Notes: a model not told the origin generated them from the sequence alone. DNA of 64,000 bases from Candidatus Latescibacterota bacterium (GCA_965116885.1 OZ220741.1:1184001-1248000); one strand, 5' to 3'; numbered from the stretch's first letter, positions 13,185 through 64,000 are shown. Numbers and translations: made by a program.

Positions 13185-15641
13185 ATGCTCCGCAACTATC
13201 TGACAGTAGCATACCGAAATCTCGTCCGTTACAAAGTGTATTCTGCGATCAATATCACCGGCCTGGCAATCGGCATTGCGTTTTGCATCTTGACATTCCT
13301 GTACATACATCACGAGTGGACCTATGATGCGTTTCACAAGAATGCCGACCAAATTTATCGGGTATATACCGAATTCCGTGGACCAGATAACAAATTTTAT
13401 CGCACGCCTACGGTCCCAACCGCTTTGCGCAATGAATTAGTCCAAACTGTAACAGGCGTGGACCAGACTGTGCGATTGGTTGCCGGACGAGGAGACGATC
13501 CCGATGATCAAGAGATACAGGTTACGTACGGAAATCAGATCTTTAAGTTGCCTTTTCTGATCGTAGATCCCGAATTCTTAGACATGTTTTCGTTTCCTCT
13601 TCGCTCTGGCGATTCGGAAATTGCCCTCAAACATCCGCAATCTGTTGTATTGAGTGCTGAAACAGCAAAGAAAATTTTCGGAAATGAAAATCCAATCGGA
13701 AAACAACTGACACTGCGATCTCTATGGAGCCACGAACGCGCTGACTTCACAGTAACCGGCGTTGCCGAACCCATACCCGACAACTCATCGCTTCAGTTTG
13801 ATATGTTGCTACCATATCAGCATCTATGGTTCTTGCTTTACGAGGAAGCAGATGATTGGAACCTCTTTTCCAGATGTGGTACTTACGTCCAACTAAGTGA
13901 AAATACAAAATCCACAGATATAGAACCGGCGATGCACGCGATTGTAAAAGCGCATATGCTGCGACCAGAGATCTCAGCGGCCAACTTACAGTTGCGACTT
14001 CAGCCGCTGACAAATCTGCACCATCGAATAGATCTTATAGACTCCACTTACCGCAATATGAAGGCACCCCGGGATCCAATGAACGGGTATGGACTGATCT
14101 GTCTTTCGTTGTTGGTTCTGGTCATGGCTTCCATCAATTTTGTCAACCTTGCGGTGGGTCGGTTGGTCACCCGAACAAAAGAAGTGGGCATTCGCAAAGT
14201 TGTAGGCGCGGTGCGCCCTCAACTGATTCGGCAATTCTTAAGCGAGTCGATATTACTGAGCCTTGTGGCCGTAGTTTTAGGTCTGTCCCTTGCAGAACTG
14301 GTGCTACCGTTTTTCAATGAATTTATGCACCAGAACCTGTCCTTCGAAAATATTTTTACCTGGCCTACTCTTGTCTTTTTGATCGCTCTGGTCGCAGTCG
14401 TCGGTCTCCTGATTGGCAGCTATCCCGCATTTATGATCTCCGGGTTTAATCCGGTTCGCATTCTCACCGGGCGGTTTAAGCTGAGCCATCGCAATCTGTT
14501 TGGTCGCGGACTCGTCTTCGGACAGCTTGCCGTGTCGAGTGCTTTGATTACCTGCACGCTGATCATGGTTTATCAACTTCAATTTGTAAAAGAAAAAGAT
14601 CTTGGTTTTAACAAGGAATTTGTCATTGACATTAACACAGACAGTCTTCACGATTTTAGCGGGCAGCACGATTTGCTCAAGAACTATTATTTGCAACATC
14701 ACAAGGTGGTTGGAGGCACGACAGTGGGAAGACCACTGTTGGGTTGGCAAAGTAGATACGAAGGGACAGGAGAACAGGAGCAATCTCTGTGGGTAAGCCG
14801 TTTCTATGTGGATTACGATTTTGTAAAAACGCTCGAAATGAAGGTGCTATCGGGACGAGATTTTAACTCTAATGTGAATGATCAAGCACAGGGCAACATT
14901 CTCGTAAATGAAGAACTGGTCAAACAGATGGGATGGGACGACCCGATTGGACAGACCATCACATTTGAGGGCAGAGGAGGACGCTCCTTGAGAGAGTCAA
15001 AAGGGGTTACCCGGGTCATTGGCGTGGTGCAGGATTTCTATTTAATGCCGCTCCAGCAAAACGTTCAACCCGCGATGCTTTTACTGAGTCCTATAGGAAA
15101 TTCAAGAAATTTCTTAGTGCGAATCAAACCTGGCGATGTTGCCGAAACTTTGAAATACCTGGAAACAGGATGGAAAGAAATCGCGCCCGCTGGCGAGCCA
15201 TTTTACTTCACGTTTGTGGACGAGGATATTGAGAATTATTACCGGAACTTTTTAAGTTGGAGCAGAATCGTGGGCTATGCAACGATTCTGGCTGTTTTTA
15301 TCGCCTGTCTGGGTGCATTTGGGCTAACGGCATTGGCCGTGGCAAGGCGAACCAAAGAAATAGGCATTCGAAAAATTATGGGCGCTTCGGTTTTAAATAT
15401 CGTATCGCTGTTATCGCGTGAATTTGTAATACTGGTTATAGTCGCAAATCTATGCGCCTGGCCCCTGACTTATCTAATAATGATCTGGTGGTTACAGAGT
15501 TTTGCCTACCGCATTGGACTGACAGCCGGGGTATTTGCACTCGGCGCCTTGCTGACCCTATTGGTCGTAATCGGAACAGTGAGCCTACAAGCCGTGAAAG
15601 CAGCAAAAATGAATCCCGTGGAAGCGTTGCGGTATGAGTAA
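13185..15641 (+). CDS. MacB/FtsX-type double-domain ABC permease #1 (type D)
   Basis: RTKEVGIRKVVGA and RTKEIGIRKIMGA FtsX motifs, two periplasmic domains, NPVEALRYE end, no NBD. Confidence 0.95.
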   Translation: MLRNYLTVAYRNLVRYKVYSAINITGLAIGIAFCILTFLYIHHEWTYDAFHKNADQIYRVYTEFRGPDNKFYRTPTVPTALRNELVQTVTGVDQTVRLVAGRGDDPDDQEIQVTYGNQIFKLPFLIVDPEFLDMFSFPLRSGDSEIALKHPQSVVLSAETAKKIFGNENPIGKQLTLRSLWSHERADFTVTGVAEPIPDNSSLQFDMLLPYQHLWFLLYEEADDWNLFSRCGTYVQLSENTKSTDIEPAMHAIVKAHMLRPEISAANLQLRLQPLTNLHHRIDLIDSTYRNMKAPRDPMNGYGLICLSLLVLVMASINFVNLAVGRLVTRTKEVGIRKVVGAVRPQLIRQFLSESILLSLVAVVLGLSLAELVLPFFNEFMHQNLSFENIFTWPTLVFLIALVAVVGLLIGSYPAFMISGFNPVRILTGRFKLSHRNLFGRGLVFGQLAVSSALITCTLIMVYQLQFVKEKDLGFNKEFVIDINTDSLHDFSGQHDLLKNYYLQHHKVVGGTTVGRPLLGWQSRYEGTGEQEQSLWVSRFYVDYDFVKTLEMKVLSGRDFNSNVNDQAQGNILVNEELVKQMGWDDPIGQTITFEGRGGRSLRESKGVTRVIGVVQDFYLMPLQQNVQPAMLLLSPIGNSRNFLVRIKPGDVAETLKYLETGWKEIAPAGEPFYFTFVDEDIENYYRNFLSWSRIVGYATILAVFIACLGAFGLTALAVARRTKEIGIRKIMGASVLNIVSLLSREFVILVIVANLCAWPLTYLIMIWWLQSFAYRIGLTAGVFALGALLTLLVVIGTVSLQAVKAAKMNPVEALRYE

Positions 15642-15688
15642 GCTACAAGGTCGCCCGAATTCTCTCATTCTTTATGCAAGGAAATAAA

Positions 15689-18055
15689 ATGTTCCGCAAC
15701 TCGAATCTAACCGTAGCATACCGAAATCTTGTGCGCTACAAAGTGTATTCTGCGATCAACATTACTGGACTGGCAATCGGCATTGCGTTTTGCATCTTGA
15801 CCTTCTTGTATGTGCGACACGAATGGTCCTTTGACGCATTCCACGAAAAAGCAGATCGAATTTATCGCGTTTACAATAGAGGAGAAGTGGGAGAAGGCGG
15901 CGATGCCTCGGCTGCTATGCCGGGTCCTCTCGGTCCAAAGTTGGCAGAAGCATTCCCCACACAAATGCAACATGTCGTGAGAATTAACACCTCTTCTCGC
16001 ACACTCCAATACGGCGACCATGCATTTCAAGAGCGCGTAATTTACGTCGATCCGGGTTTCTGGGACATCTTTTCATTTCCCCTGATAAAAGGCGACCCCG
16101 CAACAGCACTGAATAGCAAAGACGCCATCATCATATCAGAAACATCCGCTCAAAAGTTCTTCGGCAACACCGACCCAATGGGGAAATCTTTCTCTTTCAC
16201 CCGAAACTCAAAAATCCATCAAGCTCTAATCACGGGCATAGCGAAAGACATCCCCGAAACATCCAGCATTCAATTCGACTGCATCCAGTCCTATGGGAAT
16301 GTCGAAGACGCGCTCAACTCGTGGAATTACACAGGCAACACCAGCACTTACGTCTTGCTCCACGATCAGATCCGCGCCGAAGACATAGAAAAATTACTTC
16401 CGCGTTTTATAAACTGGTCGTGGCCCATCACGGGGGAAAACCAGGAACTGAAATTGCAGCCCCTTGCCGATGTGCATTTCAGTCCAAATATCCGCGCACC
16501 CGAACCCGCCACTGACCCGGCATACAGCTACATCCTGTTGTGCATCACAGCCCTGGTACTCTTTGTCGCATGCGTGAACTTTATGACCCTCGCACTGGGA
16601 CGGTCAGCCTCTCGAGCGCGGGAAATCGGCATCCGCAAAGTCGTTGGCGCACACAAGCCCCAGGTCATCGTGCAATTCCTCACAGAATCCGTGCTCTTAA
16701 GCCTCGTAGCATTTGTAATCGGACTCGCACTATCAGAACTTTTAATGCCATTGTTCAACAACCTCATGGCGCAAAAACTATCCATAGTTGCACACCTGGA
16801 TGGTCCGGCATTTGCCTCGCTAATGGGTCTAACTCTAATTGTCGGCCTCCTCGCAGGGACCTATCCAGCCTTTGTCCTGTCCGGCTTTATGCCAATTCAC
16901 GTACTCAAAGGCAGATTGAAAATTGTCAGCGCGGGATTATTCAGCCAATTTCTCGTGGTCTTCCAGATCGCGATGTCTGCGGTCCTCGTCATCAGTGCCC
17001 TCATCATGACCTCTCAACTCGACTATTTGCGGACCAAACCCCTGGGATTTGACAGCGAACATCTGATAGCCGTCAGTCGCCTCAGCAAACTGCGAGGCCT
17101 GGGACCAAAAGGCATTGAAACCTATCGAGACGCCCTCTTATCCCATCACGCAATTCTCGGTGTAACCCAGATATACCACATGATGCGCAATGGATACCAG
17201 TCGCGCGGGGCTGTGGTACATGACGGAACAACCTTAAAAGGCGTGGAGATATTCTTTGTCGATTACGACTTTGTACCAACGCTCGACATCAAATTGATCG
17301 AAGGCCGAAATTATTCACGAGAACTTGCAACAGATCCCACCGCGTCTGTAATCATCAACCAAACCCTGGCCAAACAACTGGGACCGGGACCACCCCTCGG
17401 AAAAACACTGAAATTCTTTGATGATATGACAGTAATCGGCGTGGTAAACGATTTTCATTTTCGCTCTCTCCATCACAAAATTGGCCCCGCATTCCTGAAA
17501 TGCAATCCAGAACATCAATTTAGCCGATTGCTGGTTCGGGTGCGTGCCAACGATATCCCCGGCACACTGTCATTTATGAAAGCGCAATGGGAAGCCATAA
17601 CACAGTCCTCTGGATTCCGCTATTCGTTTCTCGACGAAGGCATCGATCGCCAATACCGAACCGAAGAGCGGTGGCATCGCATGATCGGATACGGAACCCT
17701 GTTTGCCATTTTTATCGCGTGCTTGGGCGCATTTGGATTGACAGCACTCGCCGTGACCCGGCGCACCAAAGAAATCGGCATTCGCAAAATATTGGGCGCC
17801 AGCGTCACAAACGTGGTGCGCTTACTATCGCGTGAATTCGTTCTGTTGGTCGGCATAGCAAATGTACTCGCCTGGCCAGTCGCCTATTGGGCAATGAGCA
17901 AATGGCTATCGGACTTCGCGTATCGAATTGAACTGGGCATCGGAGCATTCGCGCTAGGCGGTGTACTGACACTCTTAGTCGTAATCGGAACAGTGAGCCT
18001 GCAAGCCGTGAAAGCGGCAAAAATGAACCCCGTGGAGGCATTGCGATATGAATAA
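15689..18055 (+). CDS. MacB/FtsX-type double-domain ABC permease #2 (type D ends)
   Basis: Same architecture; termini near-identical to #1; start at ATG 15689 after AAGGA. Confidence 0.95.
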   Translation: MFRNSNLTVAYRNLVRYKVYSAINITGLAIGIAFCILTFLYVRHEWSFDAFHEKADRIYRVYNRGEVGEGGDASAAMPGPLGPKLAEAFPTQMQHVVRINTSSRTLQYGDHAFQERVIYVDPGFWDIFSFPLIKGDPATALNSKDAIIISETSAQKFFGNTDPMGKSFSFTRNSKIHQALITGIAKDIPETSSIQFDCIQSYGNVEDALNSWNYTGNTSTYVLLHDQIRAEDIEKLLPRFINWSWPITGENQELKLQPLADVHFSPNIRAPEPATDPAYSYILLCITALVLFVACVNFMTLALGRSASRAREIGIRKVVGAHKPQVIVQFLTESVLLSLVAFVIGLALSELLMPLFNNLMAQKLSIVAHLDGPAFASLMGLTLIVGLLAGTYPAFVLSGFMPIHVLKGRLKIVSAGLFSQFLVVFQIAMSAVLVISALIMTSQLDYLRTKPLGFDSEHLIAVSRLSKLRGLGPKGIETYRDALLSHHAILGVTQIYHMMRNGYQSRGAVVHDGTTLKGVEIFFVDYDFVPTLDIKLIEGRNYSRELATDPTASVIINQTLAKQLGPGPPLGKTLKFFDDMTVIGVVNDFHFRSLHHKIGPAFLKCNPEHQFSRLLVRVRANDIPGTLSFMKAQWEAITQSSGFRYSFLDEGIDRQYRTEERWHRMIGYGTLFAIFIACLGAFGLTALAVTRRTKEIGIRKILGASVTNVVRLLSREFVLLVGIANVLAWPVAYWAMSKWLSDFAYRIELGIGAFALGGVLTLLVVIGTVSLQAVKAAKMNPVEALRYE

Positions 18056-18629
18056 ACGATCAGAAATAGAAAACGACGTACAATTGATCCACATGATCAA
18101 AGCCGGCGACAAAAGCGCGTTTGGCAAACTCTACCATCTGCACCAGAATCGCGTACGCGCCATTGTCGGGCGATATGTGCAGGACCGCGACGAAACCGAA
18201 GACCTGATGCAGGTGGTATTCATGAAAGTCTTCCAGAGCCTGCGCCATTTTCGCGGCGAATCGGCATTCACAACCTATCTGACGCGCATTGCCATCAACG
18301 TCGGGCGGTCACACCTTCGGTCCCGGCTATCCCGAAAAAACGGCATGGAAACAGCAGCGCGAGACATGCCCGAACCCATTACCCTGACAACGCCAGAAGA
18401 TAGCATCATAAAAAAAGAACGCCATCAACTCTTAACACAGGGCCTGCGCACATTGCCTAAAGTGCAACAACGCGCAATGTGGCTTCGCTACATAAAAGAA
18501 CTGTCCTACCGCGAAATCGTATGGGAAATGCAAGCACCCCTCGGCTCCGTGAAAATCTGGCTCCACCGCGGGCGCCATCAGCTAAAACGCGCGCTGGAAA
18601 AACAAGAGGTCGGAGGTTGGGCGGGCTAA
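18048..18629 (+). CDS. ECF sigma factor embedded in the permease array
   Basis: EDLMQVVFMKVFQSLRHFRGESAFTTYLTRIAIN; SYREI..MQAPLGSVKIWLHRGR; overlaps the stop of permease #2. Confidence 0.9.
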   Translation: MNKRSEIENDVQLIHMIKAGDKSAFGKLYHLHQNRVRAIVGRYVQDRDETEDLMQVVFMKVFQSLRHFRGESAFTTYLTRIAINVGRSHLRSRLSRKNGMETAARDMPEPITLTTPEDSIIKKERHQLLTQGLRTLPKVQQRAMWLRYIKELSYREIVWEMQAPLGSVKIWLHRGRHQLKRALEKQEVGGWAG

Positions 18630-23513: not shown

Positions 23514-23549
23514 GTCATATACTTGTTTTTTGCCCCTCGCCTGAGCATA

Positions 23550-24265: not shown

Positions 24266-24338
24266 ATATCTTAACCTTTGTATGGAACACTAAGCATGTC
24301 CTGAAAAGGAGGTATTACAATGTGCCTGTTTTTGTTTT

Positions 24339-24460
24339 TAAGTGTTCATTTTCGGACACTACTGTATCAAAATCGGACACTTTTTGAACGGCGCTCATGG
24401 CTCAAATTTTCATAACTCCCTGTAAAACATAGAAAAGAAGTTTTTGGCACAAAAATTGCT
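24339..24460 (+). promoter_or_regulatory. Sigma54 promoter cassette copy 2 (UAS 24339-24382, -24/-12 at 24445-24460)
   Basis: Identical 44-mer; TGGCACA-AAAA-TTGCT. Confidence 0.85.
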
Positions 24461-24543
24461 TACTATTTTCATACGTCCACTCTACCTGAATGATGAATGG
24501 CTGACCGCTGACCAATAAAGGAGAGCGAACAGGAGATAACGTC

Positions 24544-37821: not shown

Positions 37822-37840
37822 CTTTTTAAGAGTGCTATTC

Positions 37841-38236
37841 ATGATCAAAAATTATCTAACCGTTGCGATTCGCAACATCGCCAGAAACAAAACGTTCTCT
37901 GCGATCAACATCCTCGGACTCGCCTCCTTCACCGCACAACAGCGCATCAAAGAAATCGGCATCCGAAAAGTATTGGGCGCATCCGTTTCCAATCTCGTAC
38001 TCATGTTGTCAAAAGAGTTTGCCCTGCTTGTCGGCATTGCCAACCTCATTGCCTGGCCAATCGCCTATTACGCGATGAACAGGTGGCTACAGGACTTCGC
38101 CTATCGCATTGATCTAGGTATATGGGCGTTTGTTCTGAGCGGTTTTCTGGCGTTGTTCATCGCCTTGACCACGGTAAGTTATCAGGCGTGGAAAGTCGCT
38201 CGCACCAATCCCGTGGATGCCCTGCGATATGAGTGA
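37841..38236 (+). pseudogene. In-frame internally deleted type C permease (131 aa)
   Basis: MIKNY...AINILGLA joined directly to SFTAQQRIKEIG...NPVDALRYE; 660 codons shorter than #6. Confidence 0.85.
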
Positions 38237-38275
38237 GCTATCATGTCGCCCACCTTCTTCCAAAACAATACATTC

Positions 38276-41480: not shown

Positions 41481-41596
41481 GCTATATAACCCCTTGTTTT
41501 TTCGCTTAAATTGAGACTCTGTTTACAGGCCGTCCCTTAAAAGAAAAACAGAAATCCGACAAGACCAGATCGCCGGTCCTGGACGAGTCTGCACTG

Positions 41597-42728: not shown

Positions 42729-43646
42729 ATGCCAAAATGGAAACACATCATATTGCAAATCAATGCACTCTTCATCGCGCTTTTAACACCGGATCCTACA
42801 TCTGCACAGACAGATAATGCACAACCTTTCAAAGTACAAATAACGGGATCCGGGCATCCGATGATCTTAATTCCCGGTCTAAGCAGCTCTGGAGACGTTT
42901 GGTGCGAAACAGTCAGCCGATACCAGAACAGCTTTGAATGCCACGTCTTTACACTCGCGGGATTTGCCGGACAGCCCCCTGTGCAAACAGACCACTATTT
43001 GCAAACCATGAGAGACGCGCTTATTGCATATATTCAGGAAAACGACCTGAAAAAACCAATCCTTGCAGGACACAGTTTGGGCGGTTTTCTATCATTGTGG
43101 GTTGCTGCAAGCATACCCGAAAGCGTGGGATCGCTTATTATAGTCGATGCAGTACCCTTTTTACCCGCACTACAAAATCCAGCGGCAACAGTTGAATTTA
43201 TGCGTGTGCCAGCAGAACAAACACGCGCCTATATACTTTCCCAAACACCTGAACAAAGAGAAAAAGCAACACCATCTATGCTCAAAATGATGATCACAGA
43301 CCCTGCAAAAGTAGATACGGCTGTCGTATGGAGTCTATCTTCGGACCCAAACACAGTTGCACAAGCAATGTACGAAATGTTTTTAACCGACTTGCGAACC
43401 GAAATAAAAAAAATACAAACACCTGTTTTGGTACTGGGAGCCTGGATTTCGGGGCAATCTCATGGCGCAACGCGAGAAAGTTCACTGGCCGCATATCAAA
43501 AACAGTATGATCAAGTTAAGAATTGCGAAATATGGATGACGGACACCGGCAAACATTTTATTATGTGGGACGACCCAGAGGGCTACTTTACGACCATTGA
43601 TGCGTTCCTCTCTCTCAAGACAACCACGCCCCAGACTCCCAGGTGA
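42729..43646 (+). CDS. Secreted alpha/beta hydrolase
   Basis: Signal-like N-terminus, LIPGL, GHSLGG nucleophile elbow, KHFIMWD. Start moved to 42729 after AAGGAGG. Confidence 0.9.
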   Translation: MPKWKHIILQINALFIALLTPDPTSAQTDNAQPFKVQITGSGHPMILIPGLSSSGDVWCETVSRYQNSFECHVFTLAGFAGQPPVQTDHYLQTMRDALIAYIQENDLKKPILAGHSLGGFLSLWVAASIPESVGSLIIVDAVPFLPALQNPAATVEFMRVPAEQTRAYILSQTPEQREKATPSMLKMMITDPAKVDTAVVWSLSSDPNTVAQAMYEMFLTDLRTEIKKIQTPVLVLGAWISGQSHGATRESSLAAYQKQYDQVKNCEIWMTDTGKHFIMWDDPEGYFTTIDAFLSLKTTTPQTPR

Positions 43647-43653
43647 GCACAAT

Positions 43654-44709
43654 ATGTCCGAGATCAAAAACCACAGCAAAGCGTATTGGACCTGTCAGAT
43701 TTTGGGATGGGGAATTTACGGCCTGCTCAACACATTTTTTTTATCCGCTTTTCAGACCATTACCGCACAAAATCTGGGCATCACCGTTTTTGGATCTATC
43801 CAACTTTTATTGTGGACACACCTGCTCAGAACCATATTCAAAAAACGGCATTGGGTCACACTGCCTTTGTGGAAACTCTTTATCAGAGTATTGATAGCCG
43901 ACCTTGTCATTGCGATTATCAGCCAGAGCATTCAAATCTTTGGTTATCTTTATATAGACGAGACGCTTACGATTGAACAATTCCGTTGGAAATTGTATGG
44001 CATCCAAATACTCAACACGAACTTTATCCTCTGGATATGGTCGCTGTTATATGTCGTGTTCCACATGTTTGACATAACCAAACGCGGAGAACGCGAAAAA
44101 TGGGAATTACAAACAGCGGTTAAAGAAGCCGAATTGATGGCACTAAAAGCCCAGATAAATCCTCATTTTCTTTTTAACAGCCTCAACAATATCCGCGCTC
44201 TGGTCATTGAAAATCCTGCACGAGCACGCGACATGATCTCAAAACTGTCTGAGCTATTCCGATACGCGCTGCAGGTCAGCAGCACCAGAAGTGTGTCGTT
44301 AAAAGAGGAATTGGCAATTGTGAAAAACTATCTCCAACTCGAAGCCGTCCAGTTGGAAGACAGGTTGCGTTATCGGTTTGACATCGCGCCGGAAACACAA
44401 CAAGTCGAAATTCCCCCGATGACCATACAAACCCTGGTCGAAAATGCCATTCGACACGGCATTGCACAGCATCCCGATGGTGGCGAAATCTCAATTCGGA
44501 CAACCCTTCAGCAAACTGTTATGGAGGTCTGCATTGTAAACACCGGCCAAATGAAAAACAACGCAACACATGACGGCATTGGCCTGCAAAACACCAGAGA
44601 ACGTCTGCGCCTTTTATTTGGAGAAACCGCGCAATTAACGGTTGAAAATACGTCTCAAAATCAGGTCTGTGCAAAATTTCAAGTGCCGCTCACTGGACAA
44701 CAAATATGA
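43654..44709 (+). CDS. LytS/YehU family membrane sensor histidine kinase
   Basis: About 4 TM segments; LKAQINPHFLFNSLN; QTLVENAIRHG; GIGLQN. Confidence 0.95.
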   Translation: MSEIKNHSKAYWTCQILGWGIYGLLNTFFLSAFQTITAQNLGITVFGSIQLLLWTHLLRTIFKKRHWVTLPLWKLFIRVLIADLVIAIISQSIQIFGYLYIDETLTIEQFRWKLYGIQILNTNFILWIWSLLYVVFHMFDITKRGEREKWELQTAVKEAELMALKAQINPHFLFNSLNNIRALVIENPARARDMISKLSELFRYALQVSSTRSVSLKEELAIVKNYLQLEAVQLEDRLRYRFDIAPETQQVEIPPMTIQTLVENAIRHGIAQHPDGGEISIRTTLQQTVMEVCIVNTGQMKNNATHDGIGLQNTRERLRLLFGETAQLTVENTSQNQVCAKFQVPLTGQQI

Positions 44710-45419
44710 ATGCATTGATTGTCGATGATTCCCGACTTGCCCGTCAGGAATTAAAACACTTACTCAAAGCTTTTGAGGCCATCACTGTCGCAGGTGAAGC
44801 CGCAAATGCAGATGCAGCACGGCAACAACTCAAAAGACTATCTGTCGATGTGATCTTCCTCGACATTCAGATGCCCGGACAAGACGGTTTTGAATTGCTT
44901 GAAACCCTCGACCAGGTACCACAGGTGATCTTTACAACCGCCTACGACGAATATGCCATTCGGGCGTTTGAAGTAAACGCGCTCGACTACTTGCTAAAAC
45001 CCATTCAGCCTGAACGCCTTGCAAGCGCGATTGAAAAATTACAAGCCCAAACGCTTTCTCCCGATGAAACTGTTGCACCGGCATTGACAGATTCGAGTCG
45101 CGTCTTTGTAAAAGACGGGGACCAGTGCTGGTTTATCACACTCTCAGACATTCAATTGTTCGAAGTCTCTGGCAACTACACGCGGGTCTATTTTCAAAAA
45201 TTCAAACCCCTTATTCCGCGCACCCTCAACCACCTTGAAGAGCGTTTGGACAAACGCATATTTTTCCGTGTCAATCGCCAACAAATTATCAATTTACAGT
45301 ATATTGAAAAAATTGAGCCCTATTTTCAAGGCAGCCTGAAAGTATTTTTGAAAGGGGGCTATGAAATAGAAATTTCCCGACGTCAGACACAAAAATTCCG
45401 AGAGCGCCTGAGTCTTTAA
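44706..45419 (+). CDS. LytTR family response regulator
   Basis: IVDD, FLDIQMP, TTAYDEYA, DYLLKP; LytTR FFRVNRQQIIN..ISRR. Confidence 0.95.
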   Translation: MNALIVDDSRLARQELKHLLKAFEAITVAGEAANADAARQQLKRLSVDVIFLDIQMPGQDGFELLETLDQVPQVIFTTAYDEYAIRAFEVNALDYLLKPIQPERLASAIEKLQAQTLSPDETVAPALTDSSRVFVKDGDQCWFITLSDIQLFEVSGNYTRVYFQKFKPLIPRTLNHLEERLDKRIFFRVNRQQIINLQYIEKIEPYFQGSLKVFLKGGYEIEISRRQTQKFRERLSL

Positions 45420-45467: not shown

Positions 45468-45503
45468 CAGGCACATTGAAATTAAAACAATGTGCCTGTT
45501 TTT
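45468..45503 (+). terminator. Intrinsic terminator directly upstream of cassette copy 3
   Basis: CAGGCACATTG-N9-CAATGTGCCTG-TTTTT. Confidence 0.75.
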
Positions 45504-45507
45504 ATTA

Positions 45508-45629
45508 TAAGTGTTCATTTTCGGACACTACTGTATCAAAATCGGACACTTATTGAACGACGTTCATGACACAAATTTCCATAACTACTTGTAAAACATA
45601 GAGAAGATGTTTTTGGCACGGGAATTGCT
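45508..45629 (+). promoter_or_regulatory. Sigma54 promoter cassette copy 3 (UAS 45508-45551, -24/-12 at 45614-45629)
   Basis: Identical 44-mer; TGGCACG-GGAA-TTGCT. Confidence 0.85.
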
Positions 45630-45737
45630 TAGTATTTTGATACATTCACGCTTTCGCGTATCGCATTGTATCGGACATCGGTATTTTTTACGTCGAGGAA
45701 TATCAGTCTGCATTGAAAACGACATCCGGAGGTCAAC

Positions 45738-48281: not shown

Positions 48282-50522
48282 ATGAAAGTGGGGTCAGTGA
48301 TTTATACAGGTTTTATACTCCTGTTTTGCATATTTAGTGCTGGCTCATCCAGAGGAGAAGCCACAATAGACACACTGTTTCAAAATGCAATGGAACAAGT
48401 CGGACAGGTGAGTCCTGAAGAAAGCATCAAGGCGTTCGAGGCGATTATTTCCAAAGACAGAAATTATGCGCCTGCATACAACGAATTGGCCAAACTGCAT
48501 TTGCTGGATTATAGCGTAAATGGCCGACAACGGGCGAGACAGATAATTCAGAAAGCAATCGAACAGGATCACAAGAATCCAACCTATCAACTGACACGAG
48601 CAAAAATTATGTGGTCGCAGGGCTTTTGGGAGGAGGCGTTAAATCAGTATAAGAAGGTTCATCCGAAAAATACAGAAGCCCTTGATGGTATTGGTATGGC
48701 TCTGGTGTACGAATATCTGTCGATGCGGGACGAAGTCAAAGCCAGAGACAGGGACTTTAGCGGCTTTGCTGCAAAGGCTAACAAAGAAGCCGAGCAAGTA
48801 TTGCTCAAAAGCATCCAATTGAACCCGGAGAATCAGACACCTTATTATTTGCTGGGGATGCTCTATTTTGAAAGCCAGCGTTTTGCAGACTTTCAAGCCT
48901 TGATGAAAAACCTGAAAATGCACTATCCAACAGATAAGAATGTGCTGTTGTTCTGCGGTCTTGCTGAATATGAGGTGGGCGAATTTAACAGCGCACATCA
49001 ATTCTACGCACAGGCACTGGAGCAAATGAGCTTGGGTGAACGCGAGTTGATGGAGTCCATTGATTTGCTTGTGCCACAAGAAGATCCGGATATTCCCGTC
49101 TTGCAATTGTCGCAGGATAAAATTAGCCAGTCTGACGAACTGCTGAGCCGCAACAATTTTTGGAAAAGCCAGGACCCACTCTATTTGTCAGAATTTAACG
49201 AAAGAAAAATGGAACATTTTGGACGCATGGCGTATGCGAATTTGCGGTTCAGACAATTTTCAGATGATATGGAAGGCTGGCAGACAGATATGGGCAAAAC
49301 CTATATCAAATTTGGAAAATTTCGATATCGAAAATCGAGTTCAGTGAGGCGGGTGGAAACCTGGTTTTACGAACAGTTCAAAATTTTTTTTACAGGAAAT
49401 GGCGCTGATCGGTGGCGTTTTGGCGGTGGATTCGAGATCGCTGGTAAACGCTTAAGCCCATCCAGAGCGGCAAGTGCATTTGATGATACCAATGCCGTAG
49501 CTAATTTATTCAGAAGAGAGCCAGGACGAAATGTATATCCCACCAGATTTGAGGAGCGTTCAGACCTTATTTTTTTTAAGACTGAACAGCGTTATGTTGA
49601 TCCGTATCTAAATCGAAAATACACCTTACCCTATCTGGTCGCCGTCTTTCAAGAACGAGACAGCGTGCGGGTTGAACTCAGTTATATGATTCCAAAAGAC
49701 CGCTTAAAAGAGAACCCTGAAACCGGCAAGGTGAGCTTCTGGGATGGCGTGTTCTTATTTGATGAGCATTGGGATGAGATATATAACTATCGCAAATCCG
49801 TGAACTTCGCATTGCCACCACCTGTACCTGCCGAAAACGCAGCCGCAAGACATCGGAACAATCACTTACTGATCTCGCGCAATCTGTATGCGTCCCAAGG
49901 TACTTATCATTTCTCTGTTGAATTATTGGATCAAACATCGGGTGCAATTGGTATAGCACGCAATGAAGAGCAATTTTTGTATAACCAGGAGACCTTTCAT
50001 TTGAGCGATCTATTGGTGGCGAGTAATATTCAAACAAGAAATGCGTTTCCAGAACACCGTGATGACGTGATCATCACACCCAATCCCGTTCGCACCTTTT
50101 CACGATCAGAATCGATCTTCATTTATCTGGAACTCTATGATTTGCAACGCGATAAGTTCGGAAGAACACACTATCAAATCTCCTATACCATTAGCAAGCC
50201 AGAGGTGGATACAGTATCTCCTGCGTTATTTATGTCTCAAAAATTACTCGATACTCTGGGAAAAACAGAGATTGATATAAGTGTCAGGAGCCAGGTGCAT
50301 CATACAGAGGCGCAAGATTTGAATATCGAACGCTCACAGGACAGTGATGTGATCCGCACAGTAACAGCCAATTACGAAGGCAATCGAGAAGATGACTTCA
50401 CCTACTTGCAGATCAATGTGAACCAGATACCCGAAGGGATTTATCAATTAACCGTATTCGCGAAAGACGAACAGACCGAGCAGACGGATATGCAACACAT
50501 CTATTTCCGTATCGTAGAATAA
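48282..50522 (+). CDS. Exported TPR + GWxTD domain protein
   Basis: Signal-like N-terminus, TPR-like repeats, FWKSQDP..NE..EH..R..YAN..F..GWQTDMGKTYIKFG. Confidence 0.85.
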   Translation: MKVGSVIYTGFILLFCIFSAGSSRGEATIDTLFQNAMEQVGQVSPEESIKAFEAIISKDRNYAPAYNELAKLHLLDYSVNGRQRARQIIQKAIEQDHKNPTYQLTRAKIMWSQGFWEEALNQYKKVHPKNTEALDGIGMALVYEYLSMRDEVKARDRDFSGFAAKANKEAEQVLLKSIQLNPENQTPYYLLGMLYFESQRFADFQALMKNLKMHYPTDKNVLLFCGLAEYEVGEFNSAHQFYAQALEQMSLGERELMESIDLLVPQEDPDIPVLQLSQDKISQSDELLSRNNFWKSQDPLYLSEFNERKMEHFGRMAYANLRFRQFSDDMEGWQTDMGKTYIKFGKFRYRKSSSVRRVETWFYEQFKIFFTGNGADRWRFGGGFEIAGKRLSPSRAASAFDDTNAVANLFRREPGRNVYPTRFEERSDLIFFKTEQRYVDPYLNRKYTLPYLVAVFQERDSVRVELSYMIPKDRLKENPETGKVSFWDGVFLFDEHWDEIYNYRKSVNFALPPPVPAENAAARHRNNHLLISRNLYASQGTYHFSVELLDQTSGAIGIARNEEQFLYNQETFHLSDLLVASNIQTRNAFPEHRDDVIITPNPVRTFSRSESIFIYLELYDLQRDKFGRTHYQISYTISKPEVDTVSPALFMSQKLLDTLGKTEIDISVRSQVHHTEAQDLNIERSQDSDVIRTVTANYEGNREDDFTYLQINVNQIPEGIYQLTVFAKDEQTEQTDMQHIYFRIVE

Positions 50523-50701: not shown

Positions 50702-50738
50702 CAGGCATATTGAAATCAAAACAATGTGCCTGTTTTTT
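50702..50738 (+). terminator. Intrinsic terminator directly upstream of cassette copy 4
   Basis: CAGGCATATTG-N9-CAATGTGCCTG-TTTTTT. Confidence 0.7.
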
Positions 50739-50742
50739 ATTA

Positions 50743-50864
50743 TAAGTGTTCATTTTCGGACACTACTGTATCAAAATCGGACACTTATGGAACGGCGTTC
50801 ATGACACAAATTTTCATAACTATTTGTAAAACATAGAAAAGAGTCTTTTGGCACGGAAATTGCT
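50743..50864 (+). promoter_or_regulatory. Sigma54 promoter cassette copy 4 (UAS 50743-50786, -24/-12 at 50849-50864)
   Basis: Identical 44-mer; TGGCACG-GAAA-TTGCT. Confidence 0.85.
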
Positions 50865-50928
50865 TAGTATTTTGATACACTCACTTTACCTGTATGGTGC
50901 AAATCCTATCCCTGCACAGGAAAAACCA

Positions 50929-53431: not shown

Positions 53432-54790
53432 GTGTCAACACCCGAACGAGATGATTCACAAAAAAAGAAAGCCGTACCCAGCTTTGTAGGCAGGGGGTCT
53501 TCCTCGCCCGAACCGTCACCAGAAGCCACGAGCCAGGACGGCATGGACCGCAGGGTCGAAAAGAAAGTATGGACGCCAAAACGCATTGCCAGCATCAGCG
53601 GGATCGCCGTATTTGTGTGTGCCGTGATCTACATGGCTGTCTTTGGCGACCACAGCGCCAGACTCAATGTACAGGTCGATCGAATTACCATCTCAGAAGT
53701 CACGCGCGGACCCTTCCAGGAATTTACCGTCCAGCGCGGCACTGTATTGCCAATTCAAACCTATTATATCGACGCACTGGAAGGCGGACAAATAGAGGAA
53801 ATCTTCCTGGAAGAAGGAACAATGGTCGAAAAAGGCAGGCCCATTTTGAAATTGTCAAACCCCACCCTGGAGCAAAATATTTTAACCCAGGAAGCCCGTC
53901 TGTTTGAACAGATCAACAACATGGAAAACACCCGGTTGAACCTGGAAAATCGGGCCATCCGCAACCGCCAGGAACTGATGCGCGTTGAATTGAACTTGCG
54001 GGAGACAGAACGACAATACGAAAAGCAGAAAGTTTTGTTCGAACGCGGATTGACTTCCCAAGACCTGTTTGAAAGTGCGCGGGATCGATATCAAAACGAT
54101 CAAAAACGCAGGTCATTTGCATTGGAAACAGTACGCCAGGACTCGCTGTATCGCATCAACCAACTCGCTGCACTGGACACGAGCGCCAGGAGTTTGCAAC
54201 GGCAATTGGAGCATGTGCGCCGTCCGTTAGAGAACCTGACCGTGCGCGCGCCCATTGCCGGACAATTGTCCCAATTAAATGCGGAAATCGGCCAGTTGAT
54301 GAACAGGGGAAGGCGCATTGGTCAAGTCGATGTACTCGACGCCTATAAAATGCGGGTGGGCATCGATGAATTTTACATCACCAGAATCACAAAAGGACTC
54401 AAAGGCACCATTGAGATCGACGATGAAACTTATGAACTCACAATCCGCCGGGTCTTTCCCGAAGTCTTAGAAGGACAATTTGAAGTCGATATGGATTTTG
54501 TAGATGCGACACCGCAAAGCATTCGGCGCGGTCAAACAGAACAGATACGATTGGAACTCGACGCACCCGAAGAAGCCCTCTTGCTCCCCCGCGGTGGATT
54601 TTATCAAACAACAGGCGGCAACTGGGTATTTGTCGTCGAAGGCGACGAAGCCATACGCCGCGAAGTGCGCATAGGCCGCCAAAGCCCCGAATACTTCGAA
54701 GTCCTCGCTGGCCTCTCTCCCAGCGAGCGCGTGGTCACATCGTCTTATGACAATTACGAAGAAATCGATAAGTTAGTTTTAAAAAGGTAA
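53432..54790 (+). CDS. HlyD/MacA-family periplasmic adaptor (membrane fusion protein)
   Basis: Single N-terminal TM, EGGQIEEI..EEG lipoyl half, coiled coil, VRAPIAG, EVLAGL. Alternative start at ATG 53543. Confidence 0.92.
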   Translation: MSTPERDDSQKKKAVPSFVGRGSSSPEPSPEATSQDGMDRRVEKKVWTPKRIASISGIAVFVCAVIYMAVFGDHSARLNVQVDRITISEVTRGPFQEFTVQRGTVLPIQTYYIDALEGGQIEEIFLEEGTMVEKGRPILKLSNPTLEQNILTQEARLFEQINNMENTRLNLENRAIRNRQELMRVELNLRETERQYEKQKVLFERGLTSQDLFESARDRYQNDQKRRSFALETVRQDSLYRINQLAALDTSARSLQRQLEHVRRPLENLTVRAPIAGQLSQLNAEIGQLMNRGRRIGQVDVLDAYKMRVGIDEFYITRITKGLKGTIEIDDETYELTIRRVFPEVLEGQFEVDMDFVDATPQSIRRGQTEQIRLELDAPEEALLLPRGGFYQTTGGNWVFVVEGDEAIRREVRIGRQSPEYFEVLAGLSPSERVVTSSYDNYEEIDKLVLKR

Positions 54791-54821: not shown

Positions 54822-55499
54822 ATGATCAAAACCGTCAACCTCGAGAAAGTCTATACCACAGAAGAAGTGGAAACAACCGCCCTGAACAATGTCAACATAG
54901 ATATTGAAGAAGGCGAATTTGTCGCCGTAATGGGACCATCGGGATGCGGCAAATCCACACTCTTGAACGTCCTCGGTCTGCTGGACAACCCGAGCGGTGG
55001 AGAATACTTTCTGAACGAAGAAGAAGTCTCCAAACACACCGAGCGGCAAAGAGCCAACACCCGCAAGTCAAACATCGGCTTTGTATTTCAAAGTTTCAAT
55101 CTCATCGACGAACTGACCGTCGCCGAAAACGTGGAACTGCCCCTGTTATATCTCGGCTTACCAGCCAGCGAGCGCAAACAGCGCCTGGACGAATCCCTCG
55201 AATACATGGGCATCAAACACCGCGAAAAGCATTTCCCGCAGCAATTATCGGGCGGTCAGCAGCAGCGCGTAGCCGTGGCCAGAGCCGTCATAGCAAACCC
55301 CAACATCATCCTCGCAGACGAGCCAACGGGTAATCTCGACTCGTCAAACGGCAACGAAGTCATGGATCTGTTGACCGAACTAAACAAAAACGGCACCACA
55401 ATCGTGATGGTGACCCACAACTCGCACGACGCGGGATACGCGCATCGCATCATCCACTTATTCGACGGCCATGTCGTGACAGAGAACATCAAAGGATAG
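54822..55499 (+). CDS. MacB/LolD-type ABC ATP-binding protein 1
   Basis: [39 protein letters not shown]. Confidence 0.97.
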   Translation: MIKTVNLEKVYTTEEVETTALNNVNIDIEEGEFVAVMGPSGCGKSTLLNVLGLLDNPSGGEYFLNEEEVSKHTERQRANTRKSNIGFVFQSFNLIDELTVAENVELPLLYLGLPASERKQRLDESLEYMGIKHREKHFPQQLSGGQQQRVAVARAVIANPNIILADEPTGNLDSSNGNEVMDLLTELNKNGTTIVMVTHNSHDAGYAHRIIHLFDGHVVTENIKG

Positions 55500-57948: not shown

Positions 57949-58016
57949 GGGACGGCACAGGGACCGTCCCCTACGATGATACTGTGGTTTGTAGGGGCGA
58001 CCCCCTGTGGTCGCCC
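57949..58016. repeat. Inverted REP doublet (REPIN-like), GTAG family
   Basis: GGGACGGCACAGGGACCGTCCCCTAC-N16-GTAGGGGCGACCCCCTGTGGTCGCCC. Confidence 0.8.
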
Positions 58017-58042
58017 GTTGACCGTTGTTCCGGAGAATCACC

Positions 58043-58300
58043 ATGCCCAAAATCTCGATCAAATTGCCGCCTTTAGACGCCGAAGACACCGTAGAAGTAA
58101 CCGTAGTGGTAAACGGCAAAAGCAGAAAATACGATTACCGCATGGAACTATTCGCCTGGGAGGAACACGCCGAACCCCACGAACAGAGAGTCATGTGTTT
58201 GAAACGGATTGTGGAAAACTACGACCAGGACTGGTCGCTCGTAGAAATTGGCGAACCATCCGAACACGAGGTATCTATCCTATTCGAACGCCGCGCATGA
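58043..58300 (+). CDS. Small hypothetical protein (85 aa) directly upstream of ATPase 2
   Basis: GGAG RBS, protein-like composition, stop adjacent to the RBS of the next gene. Confidence 0.65.
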   Translation: MPKISIKLPPLDAEDTVEVTVVVNGKSRKYDYRMELFAWEEHAEPHEQRVMCLKRIVENYDQDWSLVEIGEPSEHEVSILFERRA

Positions 58301-58310
58301 GGAGATAGAC

Positions 58311-58985
58311 ATGATCGAACTAAAAAACATCGAAAAATACTACGAAAACGGCATCGTAAAAACATTCGTACTCCGGCGCATTGACCTGCAAATCCGCGAA
58401 GGAGAATTTGTATCCATCATGGGACCCTCTGGTGCCGGCAAATCAACGCTCTTGCACATCCTGGGCATGCTGGACACCGCCTCGAATGGAGCGTATCATT
58501 TTTACAACCGCGCAGTTCACAAACTGGACGAACGCGCATTGACCGAACTGCACCGCGACCACATCGGCTTTGTATTCCAAAGCTACCATCTAATCGACGA
58601 ACTAACAGTGGGCGAAAATTTGGAAACCCCCCTCCTGTATCAAAAAGTAAAAGGCGCCGAACGCAAAGGCCGCATCGCCGAAATGCTCGACCGCTTCAAC
58701 ATCGTGGCAAAAAAGCGACTATTCCCCAACCAGTTATCCGGCGGACAACAACAACTGGTAGGCATAGCCCGGGCATTGATCACGCAACCAAAACTGATCC
58801 TGGCCGACGAACCAACCGGCAACTTAAACTCGGCAGAAGGCGAGCGGATCATGACCCTGTTCAAACACCTGAATGCCGAAGGCGTAACCATTGTCCAATG
58901 CACACACTCGGAGAAAAACGCCGCTTACGGAGACCGCATCGTACATCTATCGGACGGATGGTTAGACCGGGATGAGCAGTTGTAA
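58311..58985 (+). CDS. MacB/LolD-type ABC ATP-binding protein 2
   Basis: [30 protein letters not shown]. Start at 58311 after GAGGAG. Confidence 0.95.
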
Positions 58986-59038: not shown

Positions 59039-59653
59039 ATGAAGGAACACGTCGATCCAACACTCGCGAACGAATTGGCCGAAGGCACGTCAGACAAAAA
59101 AATAGATGCCCTGTTCGCCTACATGGAAGCGAGGGGCCAGTCCCACTACGACGAAGTCGTAACGCAACTCGAACACGCGCTCCAGTGCGCCAATCTGGCT
59201 CAGCTCGCCAATGGAGACGCGATTCAGATAACTGCCGCACTATTGCACGATATCGGCCATTTTCTGATGGACGAACACGCAGAAAACGCAGATTTCCACA
59301 CCCAGGACTTTCTCCACGAAGAAGTGGGCGCCGCGTACATAGCACCCTTTTTTATCGAGGCGGTGACCGAACCGGTGAAACTTCACGTTCCGGCCAAGCG
59401 ATACATCTGCACCACGGATTCGACCTACTACAACACCCTTTCCGAAGCCTCTAAGCATAGTTTCCAACTGCAAGGAGGCCTCATGTCAGATCGGGAAAGG
59501 ACCGAGTTCGAAAGCAATCCTTACTACCAGAATGCCGTACACCTCAGGAAATGGGATGATCTGGCCAAGGTGAAGAACCTGAAAACCCCAGAGCTCGAAA
59601 CGTACAGGGACGCAGTGGCGCATTGTCTGAAGCCGACCAATGCACGCACTTAG
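59039..59653 (+). CDS. HD-domain protein, PhnZ/TmpB-like di-iron oxygenase family
   Basis: E.VTQLEHALQCA, AALLHDIGH, HEEVGA, LHVPAKRY, LQGG.M, LRKWDD.AK. Confidence 0.85.
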   Translation: MKEHVDPTLANELAEGTSDKKIDALFAYMEARGQSHYDEVVTQLEHALQCANLAQLANGDAIQITAALLHDIGHFLMDEHAENADFHTQDFLHEEVGAAYIAPFFIEAVTEPVKLHVPAKRYICTTDSTYYNTLSEASKHSFQLQGGLMSDRERTEFESNPYYQNAVHLRKWDDLAKVKNLKTPELETYRDAVAHCLKPTNART

Positions 59654-62167: not shown

Positions 62168-62189
62168 AACTTAATTTCTGACGTTAAAC

Positions 62190-64000
62190 ATGTTCCAAAA
62201 CTATCTGAAAATCGCCCTGCGAAATTTGATGCGCCACAAGGGATACTCGCTGATCAATGTACTGGGACTATCGGTGGGCGTGGCTTGTTGTGTCCTCATC
62301 GGATTATTCATTCACGATGAATTTCGCGTCAATCGGTTTCACACAAAGAGCGATCGGATCTACAAATTGCTCCGCGAGATGCGCAACGATGACGGCACCC
62401 GTGACATGGGTTTTGGCACATCGGGCGCAGCGGGACCCGCGCTAAAAAAAGACTATTCAGAAATCGAAACAGTCGTGCGATACCTGTCGTGGGGCTATAT
62501 CTGGACCACGTATAAAGACCGCAAATTTAATCAGCGGTTCTGTTTGACAGATCCCGATTTTCTGGATGTCTTCGATTTTGAACTGGTGAGGGGAGATCGC
62601 GCAACAGTACTCAAAGAACCGCTTTCCATCCTGGTGACAGAGGCAACCGCGCGGCGATTTTTTGGGGATGACGACCCAATAGGAAAAGTGCTTACCGTCG
62701 ATGATCGGTATATGGGCGGGGTATATACGATTACCGGGGTACTAAAAAACGTGCCTCGGCAATCAACCATGCAATTTGATATCGTATGTGCAACCGTAAA
62801 CACCTATTGGACGCGGAACGTATTTGAAAACTGGGCGGTAGATTCAACCTGGCGACCGGCACACAATTACATCTTATTGCGAGAAGGCGCAGATGCGAAA
62901 GCACTCGAAGCAAAATTGCCCGAATTCATGGCGCGATACATGGGCGATGAAATCGTCAAAAAGAGCACCTATTTTTTGCAACCCTTAGAGCGAATCTATC
63001 TGTATTCCAAAGTGGATTATGGCATCTCATTTCACAGCGATATTACGTATGTGTACCTGTTTGCAATCATCGGACTTTTCATTTTACTGATTGCGTGCAT
63101 CAACTTTATGAACCTGTCAACAGCGCGCTCTGCGCGACGGGCACGCGAAGTCGGATTGCGAAAAGTAGTGGGAGCCTATCGCGCCCAATTGATTCGACAG
63201 TTCCTGGGAGAGACATTTTTAACCGCACTGCTGGCCGGGCTATTGTCGCTAATTATTGTGAAAATTTCACTACCCCTCCTGAATAACTTTGCCCAAAAAA
63301 CAATAGCACTTGAAGGACAGACCCTGTGGTACGCGATTGCTGGCCTATTTGTTTTAACCGTACTGGTAAGCCTCCTCTCCGGAGGATATCCCGCGCTATT
63401 TCTATCCAGTTTTCGGCCCGTAACAGTACTGAAAGGCACGCTTATTTCGGGTACCAAAAGCGGTCGATTGCGACAGATCCTCGTGATATTTCAATTTGCG
63501 ATCTCGACATTTTTAATCGTGGGCACATACACGGTATATCAGCAATTGAATTATGTACAGAACAAAAACTTGGGATTCGATAAAGATCTCATAGTTCTAA
63601 CCTATCTATTTTCTACAGACCGACGATTGACGGATGATTATTTGAATATCAAAAATGAATATCTGAAGCACCCAAACATCTTGAAAGCATCGGCATCGCA
63701 TTCTTCGATGGGATATGGGGGACAACTGGACAGGGTATTTCCCGAGGGAAGAGGAGGGGAAGACTGGCGGATGCGCGTCCTGGGCGTGGATGAAGCCTTT
63801 TTAGACACCTATAATCTGGAACTCACAGCGGGTCGCAATTTTTCGCTATCAGTAACAACCGATACATCTCAGGCATTTATCCTGAACGAAACTGCCGTGA
63901 AGCGATTGGGATGGACCGAGCCGCTTGGAAAGGAATTTGGATGGGCTGCGCACAATCGAGAGAAAGGCGTTGTGATCGGCGTAGTAAAAGATTTTCACAA
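62190..64000 (+). CDS. MacB/FtsX-type ABC permease #13 (partial, runs off the window)
   Basis: MFQNYLKIALRNLMRHKGYSLINVLGL...ACINFMNLSTARSARRAREVGLRKVVGA; missing from the ORF track because it has no stop in the window. Confidence 0.92.
   Translation, partial: MFQNYLKIALRNLMRHKGYSLINVLGLSVGVACCVLIGLFIHDEFRVNRFHTKSDRIYKLLREMRNDDGTRDMGFGTSGAAGPALKKDYSEIETVVRYLSWGYIWTTYKDRKFNQRFCLTDPDFLDVFDFELVRGDRATVLKEPLSILVTEATARRFFGDDDPIGKVLTVDDRYMGGVYTITGVLKNVPRQSTMQFDIVCATVNTYWTRNVFENWAVDSTWRPAHNYILLREGADAKALEAKLPEFMARYMGDEIVKKSTYFLQPLERIYLYSKVDYGISFHSDITYVYLFAIIGLFILLIACINFMNLSTARSARRAREVGLRKVVGAYRAQLIRQFLGETFLTALLAGLLSLIIVKISLPLLNNFAQKTIALEGQTLWYAIAGLFVLTVLVSLLSGGYPALFLSSFRPVTVLKGTLISGTKSGRLRQILVIFQFAISTFLIVGTYTVYQQLNYVQNKNLGFDKDLIVLTYLFSTDRRLTDDYLNIKNEYLKHPNILKASASHSSMGYGGQLDRVFPEGRGGEDWRMRVLGVDEAFLDTYNLELTAGRNFSLSVTTDTSQAFILNETAVKRLGWTEPLGKEFGWAAHNREKGVVIGVVKDFH

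Follow-up and report, generated by a model that had tools for sequence, protein, structure and literature searches.

Candidate shared ATPases and a common sigma-54 promoter module for an array of double-length MacB-type permeases in a Candidatus Latescibacterota genome

Few unexplained paralogue families of Acidobacteriota, Bacteroidota and their relatives are as large as that of the orphan double MacB-type permeases. Which ATPases power such permeases? This question is raised by a 64,000-nucleotide (nt) stretch of the genome of a Candidatus Latescibacterota bacterium (GCA_965116885.1 OZ220741.1:1184001-1248000), called the window below, in which 13 of these permeases are accompanied by one adaptor and two stand-alone ATPases of the MacB/LolD type. 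A first-pass annotation, made from the sequence of the window alone, had proposed that the permeases share the adaptor and the two ATPases and give many specificities. We consider it probable that the array is a co-induced bank of double permeases sharing a few motors. Its architecture and gene counts, the make-up and conservation of its promoter, purifying selection and a varying copy number are documented below; we infer that its members are induced together, share ATPases and adaptor, and differ in their substrates. Positions are counted from the first letter of the window unless they are called genome positions.

The permease array and its possible motors

The proteins of the window were identified by listing open reading frames (ORFs) and by Pfam and NCBIfam scans; ORFs of at least 150 amino acids (aa) were scanned against Pfam. 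The window contains 12 complete MacB_PCD/FtsX permeases of 783–833 aa, all on the + strand. The complete copies are P1 (13185..15641, 818 aa), P2 (15674..18055, 793 aa), P3 (18658..21159, 833 aa), P4 (21156..23513, 785 aa), P5 (24544..26895, 783 aa), P6 (26918..29293, 791 aa), P7 (29323..31683, 786 aa), P8 (31706..34135, 809 aa), P9 (45738..48218, 826 aa), P10 (50929..53328), P11 (55511..57946, 811 aa) and P12 (59786..62167, 793 aa). P13 (62190..64000, +) is truncated by the end of the window; in the genome it is 800 aa long and ends at the window-equivalent position 64592. P10 was recognised with Pfam, P13 with Pfam and the genome profile search, and the others with both Pfam and NCBIfam. The start of P10 was moved from TTG 50848 to the likely ATG 50929, because the TTG falls inside promoter module 4 (see below). 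MacB_PCD and two FtsX stretches were found in each of the 12 complete permeases, MacB_PCD passing as two stretches in 10 of them (P1 has two stretches of each domain), and no ABC_tran match was found by Pfam in any of the 13. The first-pass annotation had thus described the number, the strand and the missing nucleotide-binding domain (NBD) correctly.

The domain check confirmed MacB_PCD and FtsX, but not full membership in the ADOP family. ADOP (TIGR03434) is the best NCBIfam match of all 13 copies, at 206.9–333.4 bits (285.6 bits for P1) against a cut-off of 622.3. Their internally duplicated MacB_PCD/FtsX arrangement of about 800 aa, with no NBD, is that of ADOP proteins. The window permeases are ADOP relatives whose scores stay under the curated membership cut-off.

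An alignment of the genome's copies shows eight hydrophobic peaks across the family. We also obtained an AlphaFold model of P11 from 27 sequences (predicted local distance difference test score, pLDDT, 77.5; predicted template-modelling score, pTM, 0.71). It contains two MacB-like units per chain. The first unit is modelled as a helix at residues 17–45, a domain at 57–281 and helices at 301–332, 334–342, 347–384 and 394–420, and the same order is then repeated. The coupling helices are placed at 334–342 and 716–724, each after the second transmembrane helix (TM2) of its unit. In the model, each unit has the four-helix organization of type VII ABC permeases, TM1 being separated from TM2 by a large periplasmic domain and TM2 from TM3 by a coupling helix. 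When this model was compared with known structures by Foldseek, YbbP of E. coli ranked first over the whole chain (E 6e-20, template-modelling score 0.46, 13% identity), followed by MacB, a pneumococcal MacB-like transporter, LolCDE and BceAB; the matches to YbbP, MacB, LolCDE and BceAB have a probability of 1.00. A sequence profile search reached a Porphyromonas permease domain (3is6, 3e-26) and MacB, and did not reach YbbP at E <= 0.001. The array permease is a double-length type VII (MacB-superfamily) ABC permease with eight transmembrane helices, two periplasmic domains and no ATPase.

The genome (5.56 Mb, one contig) encodes 37 full-length permeases of the array type, as found with a profile built from the window copies. 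Pairwise identity among them is 23–90%, with a median of 36%. Conservation is lowest in their periplasmic domains (column identity 0.14–0.41) and highest in the two cytoplasmic loops (0.60) and at both termini. The array profile missed two other double-FtsX permeases with frames of 858 aa and 1104 aa (G000:C1:3118117-3121438, −, and 3778796-3782703, +), each of which lies beside its own MacB-class ATPase.

Ten of the 13 window permeases have no ATPase gene within two genes. As for the other three, P11 directly follows ATPase A1 (54822..55499, +), P12 follows ATPase A2 (58248..58985, +; likely ATG at 58311) and one further gene, and P10 is separated from A1 only by the gene of a HlyD-family periplasmic adaptor (53432..54790, +). 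The adaptor, A1 and P11 form the single complete cassette of the array. The adaptor was recognised with Pfam, and DarC, its closest NCBIfam model, stays under the cut-off; Pfam and NCBIfam place A1 in the MacB/LolD/DarD type and describe A2 as MacB/LolD/DarD-like. Genome search revealed a third stand-alone ATPase, A3, outside the window (genome positions 23119-23793, −). Walker A, Q-loop, signature motif, Walker B and H-loop are all retained in A1, A2 and A3. The best solved relatives of A1 are 5xu1_A, MJ0796, MacB and LolD. The three ATPases are mutual best matches (225–298 bits, 50–51% identity) and the only closely related stand-alone ATPases of this type; outside the array, none of them has a permease to itself.

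The genome encodes about a dozen NBDs of the MacB class, most of them beside their own non-array FtsX-type permease. Because 37 permeases stand against about a dozen such genes, one dedicated ATPase per permease, a possibility that the first-pass annotation had named, is excluded. Its report of one HlyD adaptor and no TolC in the window also agrees with the Pfam and NCBIfam scans. There is one HlyD adaptor gene in the array for 37 permeases genome-wide, Pfam found no OEP/TolC domain in the window, and the seven OEP genes of the genome all lie outside it. The count of two ATPases holds for the MacB/LolD type, but it had left out a type-I (MsbA/HlyB-like) ABC exporter, encoded by two overlapping genes with fused NBDs (34145..37821, +; ABC_tran in both, ABC_membrane in the second, supported by NCBIfam). 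This pair sits in one gene string with P5–P8.

The promoter module and the evolution of the array

The exact sigma-54 core TGGCAC-N5-TTGC occurs four times in the window, whereas 0.16 occurrences are expected. All four cores are on the + strand, 66–124 nt upstream of gene starts, and inside a repeat of about 150 nt, which bears out the repeated promoter of the first-pass annotation. We call this repeat the promoter module; it comprises two activator sites and a -24/-12 element. Module 1 occupies 11471..11618 (core 11593-11607; genome positions 1195471-1195618), module 2 24321..24468 (core 24445-24459), module 3 45491..45638 (core 45614-45628) and module 4 50725..50873 (core 50849-50863), each on the + strand and each identified by its exact core, by alignment and by nhmmer. 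In the alignment of the four window copies, the invariant part is an upstream block of about 45 nt, TAAGTGTTCATTTTCGGACACTACTGTATCAAAATCGGACACTT. Two dyads, TGT-N10-ACA and TGT-N11-ACA, lie 21 nt apart and are centred about 100–120 nt upstream of the likely start. Both dyads are invariant in 4/4 window modules and near-invariant in 32 unique copies. Four blocks are near-invariant across these 32 full-length copies, namely the two dyads, TTTTCATAACT...TTGTAA and TTTTGGCAC-N5-TTGC. The dyads appear similar to NifA-type activator sites.

With an nhmmer profile, the module was found 13 times in the genome, each copy pointing in the same direction as a gene that starts at most about 210 nt downstream. 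The gene directly behind the module encodes a permease in nine of the 13 cases. A module also lies directly upstream of the redoxin-domain protein leading P1–P4, of A3 (its start is 56 nt behind the module, and an ankyrin-repeat protein follows), of an operon for a leucine-rich-repeat (LRR) protein, a redoxin and a TPR/GWxTD protein, and of a TPR protein gene, behind which a 1683-aa kinase-AAA16-TPR-GAF-sigma-54 activator is encoded. Altogether 26 of the 37 permeases are downstream of a module, 24 in tight co-directional strings and 2 further behind other genes, and both A1 and A2 are downstream of module 4. Since the same promoter module heads or precedes permeases and A1–A3, these three ATPases are candidate motors of the permeases.

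A PadR-type regulator is a companion feature of the ADOP family. No PadR match over the cut-off was found in the whole genome; the one PF03551 match (23.1 bits, cut-off 27) is not near the permeases. The genome has one rpoN gene (Sigma54_DBD, 203.8 bits) and about 25 sigma-54 activators. The first-pass annotation had suggested control by sigma-54 and a sigma factor of the extracytoplasmic-function (ECF) group rather than by PadR; the four exact -24/-12 sequences, the single rpoN gene, an ECF gene in the first operon and the lack of a PadR match over the cut-off agree with this.

We considered the 1683-aa kinase-GAF activator as the regulator of the module and kept it as a candidate only: it has two paralogues of about 81% identity, with differing helix-turn-helix (HTH) helices. 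The three giants, of 1590–1683 aa, lie at G000:C1:260703-265754 (L002:704-5755, −), 77154-82148 (+) and 1919801-1924573 (+). The one scanned with Pfam combines a Ser/Thr kinase, an AAA_16/STAND-like NTPase, TPR, GAF, a sigma-54 activator domain and HTH_8, and the giant activator proteins of congeners are split or truncated. Elsewhere in the genome, a module-less permease (G000:C1:5506288-5508714, −) is divergent to a 1059-aa sigma-54 activator (5508999-5512178, +), which is a member of a group of eight paralogues of 1059–1073 aa.

Is the link between the module, the ATPases and the permeases kept in other genomes? BLAST detected the module in every one of 20 sampled congeners and, in another family of the order, in each of 13 genomes of one genus, and it was not found in the five sampled genomes of genera g2, g3, g5, g7 and g8. 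The phyletic match between the module and the giant activator is imperfect, as the activator is present in g8. Many BLAST matches keep only the activator block, with 95–100% identity, where the rest of the module has diverged. In G033, which belongs to the other family, a permease is preceded at a distance of 438 nt by a module fragment.

In five congeners the number of permease matches per genome is 9, 12, 37, 42 and 37, a few of the 42 being fragments. A1, A2 and A3 have about one orthologue each per congener, and orthologues of A1 with 92–99% identity are present in 20/20 congeners. The permease number varies fourfold while the ATPase number stays constant. Among 121 genomes sampled from the phylum, 63 contain one or more permease matches at E <= 1e-30; as 8 candidates per genome were scored, this result gives presence and not copy number.

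Synteny of the array extends to three further congeners. The adaptor (89–98% identity) and A1 and A2 (95–98%) are retained in all three syntenic arrays, and permeases are gained, lost, moved or broken there, some being only 28–38% identical to the closest window copy. The most recent groups in the window are P4/P5/P7/P10 (72–82% identity) and P3/P8 (88%). In these groups the whole-gene ratio of nonsynonymous to synonymous divergence (dN/dS) is 0.18–0.29, a sign of purifying selection, and dN is highest in the periplasmic domains. Between recent paralogues, dS falls to 0.02–0.07 in patches, and these near-zero values indicate gene conversion.

Traces of rearrangement were also found in the window. 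An open frame of 151 aa (37781..38236, +), recognised by its FtsX match and its translation, is a permease remnant in which the first ~28 residues are fused in frame to the last ~110 residues by an internal deletion; at the DNA level it matches the two ends of P6 with 78% and 91% identity. A further relic of 101 nt (41385-41485) has 88% identity to the 3' end of the remnant (38141-38241) and adjoins the second of two HigA-like genes; it is another rearrangement scar. The recombination scars of the first-pass annotation, namely the remnant, the relic and the near-zero dS patches, are real. The array is a real, old and still evolving set of 13 paralogues.

We also looked for the locus in public sequencing runs. 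Of 24 listed runs, 20, from 11 studies, contain any of a 9.9-kb stretch of the locus (one may be the source sample), and 14 contain at least half of its sampled words. Sponge metagenome runs contain the stretch, and six of the 20 are RNA runs, namely sponge metatranscriptomes. Contigs from four RNA libraries (two studies) match parts of 45–64 kb with 95–100% identity and are most continuous over 53.3–64 kb, where the adaptor, A1, P11 and A2 are located. This hints at transcription of the array, with DNA carry-over possible and the uncovered parts uninformative. In all four RNA libraries, contigs break or diverge at 57949-58024, in the spacer between P11 and A2, which suggests that this spacer is a strain-variable sequence.

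Proposed mechanism and its alternatives

We propose the following mechanism. A putative enhancer-binding protein would bind the two dyads and switch on the module-headed operons together. Each permease would be a built-in pseudo-dimer that recruits two copies of A1, A2 or A3 through its conserved cytoplasmic face. ATP-driven mechanotransmission would then move the diverged periplasmic domains, as in MacB, LolCDE and YbbAP, and through these domains each copy may act on a different periplasmic or membrane-embedded substrate. Copies that bind the adaptor would expel their substrates across the outer membrane through the adaptor and a TolC encoded elsewhere. The idea of shared ATPases, taken from the first-pass annotation, is supported indirectly by the common module and by the constant number of A1–A3 against a fourfold range in permeases, while the docking itself is what we infer.

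Several observations weigh against this mechanism. Eleven of the 37 permeases have no recognisable module. P11 and A2 are separated by a gap of 302 nt, so that A2, P12 and P13 may have their own promoter. Two MacB-class ATPases with neither an FtsX neighbour nor a module (genome positions 4434150 and 5134553) could be further motors for the permeases. The coupling-helix motif, EIGIRKxxGA, is shared by MacB-type permeases of this genome that lie outside the array and possess an ATPase of their own; we dropped coupling-helix conservation as evidence for a shared motor, since the motif is family-wide and does not discriminate. Positive selection on the periplasmic domains was looked for and rejected, no 60-codon window having dN/dS >1. 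Finally, the arrangement of module, TPR gene and activator was not found at the related loci in 3/3 congeners (G006, G009 and G014).

A broader version of the proposal can be put forward only tentatively. It would be a combinatorial system in which one sigma-54 switch, present in at least two families, co-induces up to about 40 interchangeable permeases, three motors, one adaptor and eukaryote-like LRR, ankyrin and TPR proteins; this would make a host-interface regulon that draws on one NBD pool, and gene conversion together with the birth and loss of genes would reshuffle its repertoire from species to species.

The structural similarity to YbbP raises another explanation. By analogy with FtsEX, LolCDE and YbbAP-TesA, the permeases would extract membrane-embedded molecules for, or would activate, periplasmic partners encoded in their operons (redoxins, TPR/GWxTD proteins, phosphatases, the HD oxygenase), and the adaptor would serve P11 only. 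YbbP is the best full-length structural match, and its partner is a periplasmic hydrolase according to PMC12646458; the 37 permeases have a single adaptor between them, TolC is missing from the window, and the module-driven operons do encode redoxins, TPR/GWxTD and LRR proteins, a sulfatase and purple acid phosphatases. However, no partner is kept beside each permease, YbbP has 10 helices (PMC5985334) against eight here and is missed by the sequence profile, and the cassette of adaptor, ATPase and permease looks export-like, with DarBCD and MacAB models as the best NCBIfam matches. We regard this explanation as unlikely. It is less likely still that other ATPases of the genome, or MacB-class NBDs without preference, drive the orphan permeases and that the co-location of A1 and A2 is incidental. 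The two further MacB-class NBD genes without an adjacent FtsX permease and the family-wide coupling motif would fit this, but the module of the permeases is shared by A1–A3 and by no other NBD gene, and A1 and A2 are kept in the array at 95–98% identity in all three compared genomes.

Could the permeases work with no ATPase at all, as membrane sensors or transducers whose signal goes to a neighbouring LytS/LytTR pair or to the ECF sigma factor encoded in the array? Relatives of the BceAB type do signal to kinases. BceAB-S entries are among the Foldseek matches, and the LytS/LytTR pair and an ECF sigma gene with no recognised anti-sigma gene are kept in the array. Nevertheless, the coupling helices and cytoplasmic ends are the most conserved parts of the 37 copies, which is expected for NBD docking and hard to explain otherwise, and we consider the sensor explanation very improbable. 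An assembly artefact, which the first-pass annotation had itself mentioned, or a set of decaying redundant duplicates is hardly credible. The in-frame remnant and the 101-nt relic in the window, as well as the fragments in congeners, are what decay would leave, but all 13 copies are open and have dN/dS of 0.18–0.29, copies with a median identity of 36% are too diverged to be a collapsed or expanded repeat, and the array is syntenic in three other genomes, with its stretch present in independent sponge metagenome runs.

The co-induced bank of permeases can be compared with systems already in print, and here the suggestion of an undescribed system in the first-pass annotation is not supported: ADOP-type orphan permease arrays are described in PMC3914696 and PMC11573002. 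According to PMC3914696, which cites Ward et al. 2009, ADOPs first came to notice in genomes of acidobacteria. The same paper describes a 42-kb cluster in genomic island 43 of Psychroflexus torquis, with about ten ADOP paralogues, ATP-binding proteins and an addiction module, and reports that this ADOP cluster is abundantly translated. For Dyadobacter genomes, PMC11573002 gives 28–33 ADOP copies. Our array resembles ADOP arrays in its NBD-less double permeases of about 800 aa, in its many diverged co-directional paralogues, and in that a small number of ATP-binding proteins and a toxin-antitoxin module lie within it. It differs in the scores (207–333 bits against 622.3), in the lack of a PadR match over the cut-off, and in operons with a conserved sigma-54 module that also drives stand-alone ATPases. 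In a limited search of the literature, we found neither a sigma-54 module shared by such permease operons and stand-alone ATPases nor a contrast between a fixed number of ATPases and a variable number of permeases. Thus, expanded orphan double-permease arrays are already known in print, and the sigma-54/ATPase linkage was not found there.

With MacAB-TolC, the array has in common the four-helix unit with a periplasmic domain of the Porter/Sabre type, a coupling helix behind TM2, an NBD of the MacB/LolD type and an adaptor of the HlyD family; in contrast to it, the NBD is separate, two permease units are fused, one adaptor stands for many permeases and there is no TolC in the locus. YbbAP-TesA of E. 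coli (PDB 9ge6/9ge7; PMC12646458) is, as far as is known, the only system in which a double permease working with a separate ATPase has been solved at full length. YbbP consists of two fused units with two linking helices, according to PMC5985334; these two extra helices distinguish it from the eight-helix permeases here, with which it shares 13% identity. No TesA-like (SGNH/GDSL) family was found among the Pfam matches of the scanned window ORFs of at least 150 aa. The array also resembles the darobactin exporter DarBCD (NF038008, NF038010, NF038007), a cassette of adaptor, ATPase and a double permease of about 780 aa, whose models are the best or second-best NCBIfam matches for the HlyD adaptor, A1, A2 and the permeases. 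All scores, however, fall far short of the equivalog cut-offs; A1, for instance, scores 277.8 against 375, the adaptor 192.4 against 450 and the permeases at most 165.8 against 700 bits. No radical-SAM family was found by Pfam among the scanned window ORFs, and short precursor genes were not searched for.

The shared module and the fixed ATPase number name concrete candidate motors and a concrete regulatory site for orphan permeases. The question of who powers them thus becomes a testable pairing question.

Other genes of the array and of the module-driven operons

The first gene behind module 1, 98 nt downstream, encodes a 474-aa protein with a C-terminal AhpC/TSA-redoxin domain (11716..13140, +; Pfam). 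Inside the first operon lies the ECF sigma factor gene (18048..18629, +; Sigma70_r2/r4_2), whose product is 89–97% identical in 3/3 syntenic arrays. It overlaps the end of P2 by 8 nt and is 28 nt ahead of P3, and no anti-sigma gene was recognised beside it. A LytS-type histidine kinase and a LytTR response regulator (43597..45419, +; Pfam) are encoded directly upstream of module 3; the pair is syntenic in 3/3 compared genomes, with 95–98% identity for the response regulator. A 746-aa TPR and GWxTD-domain protein is encoded at 48282..50522 (+; Pfam, NCBIfam TIGR04514). Between A2 and P12 lies the gene of an HD-domain PhnZ-like oxygenase (59039..59653, +), which scores 271.3 bits with NF052439 against a cut-off of 300 and is 94–98% identical in 3/3 syntenic arrays.

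In the genome, the products of module-driven operons include secreted-type redoxins, TPR/GWxTD and LRR proteins, a sulfatase and purple acid phosphatases. The LRR, ankyrin and TPR genes in these operons hint that the permease set belongs to a host-interaction programme of a sponge symbiont. Eukaryote-like repeat proteins of module-driven operons are encoded at L001:6357-8405 (−), L039:3800-5602 (+) and L003:5199-6116 (−). One LRR protein is first behind a module and a second follows the permease at genome position 581298; the ankyrin-repeat protein comes after A3.

Toxin-antitoxin-like loci are found within the array at 23550-24231 (−), 38311-39004 (+) and 40934-41263 (−). By the look of their translations, they include a HigB/HigA-like pair between P4 and module 2, a PIN-like ORF overlapping a ribbon-helix-helix-like ORF, and a second HigA-like gene that resembles the first.

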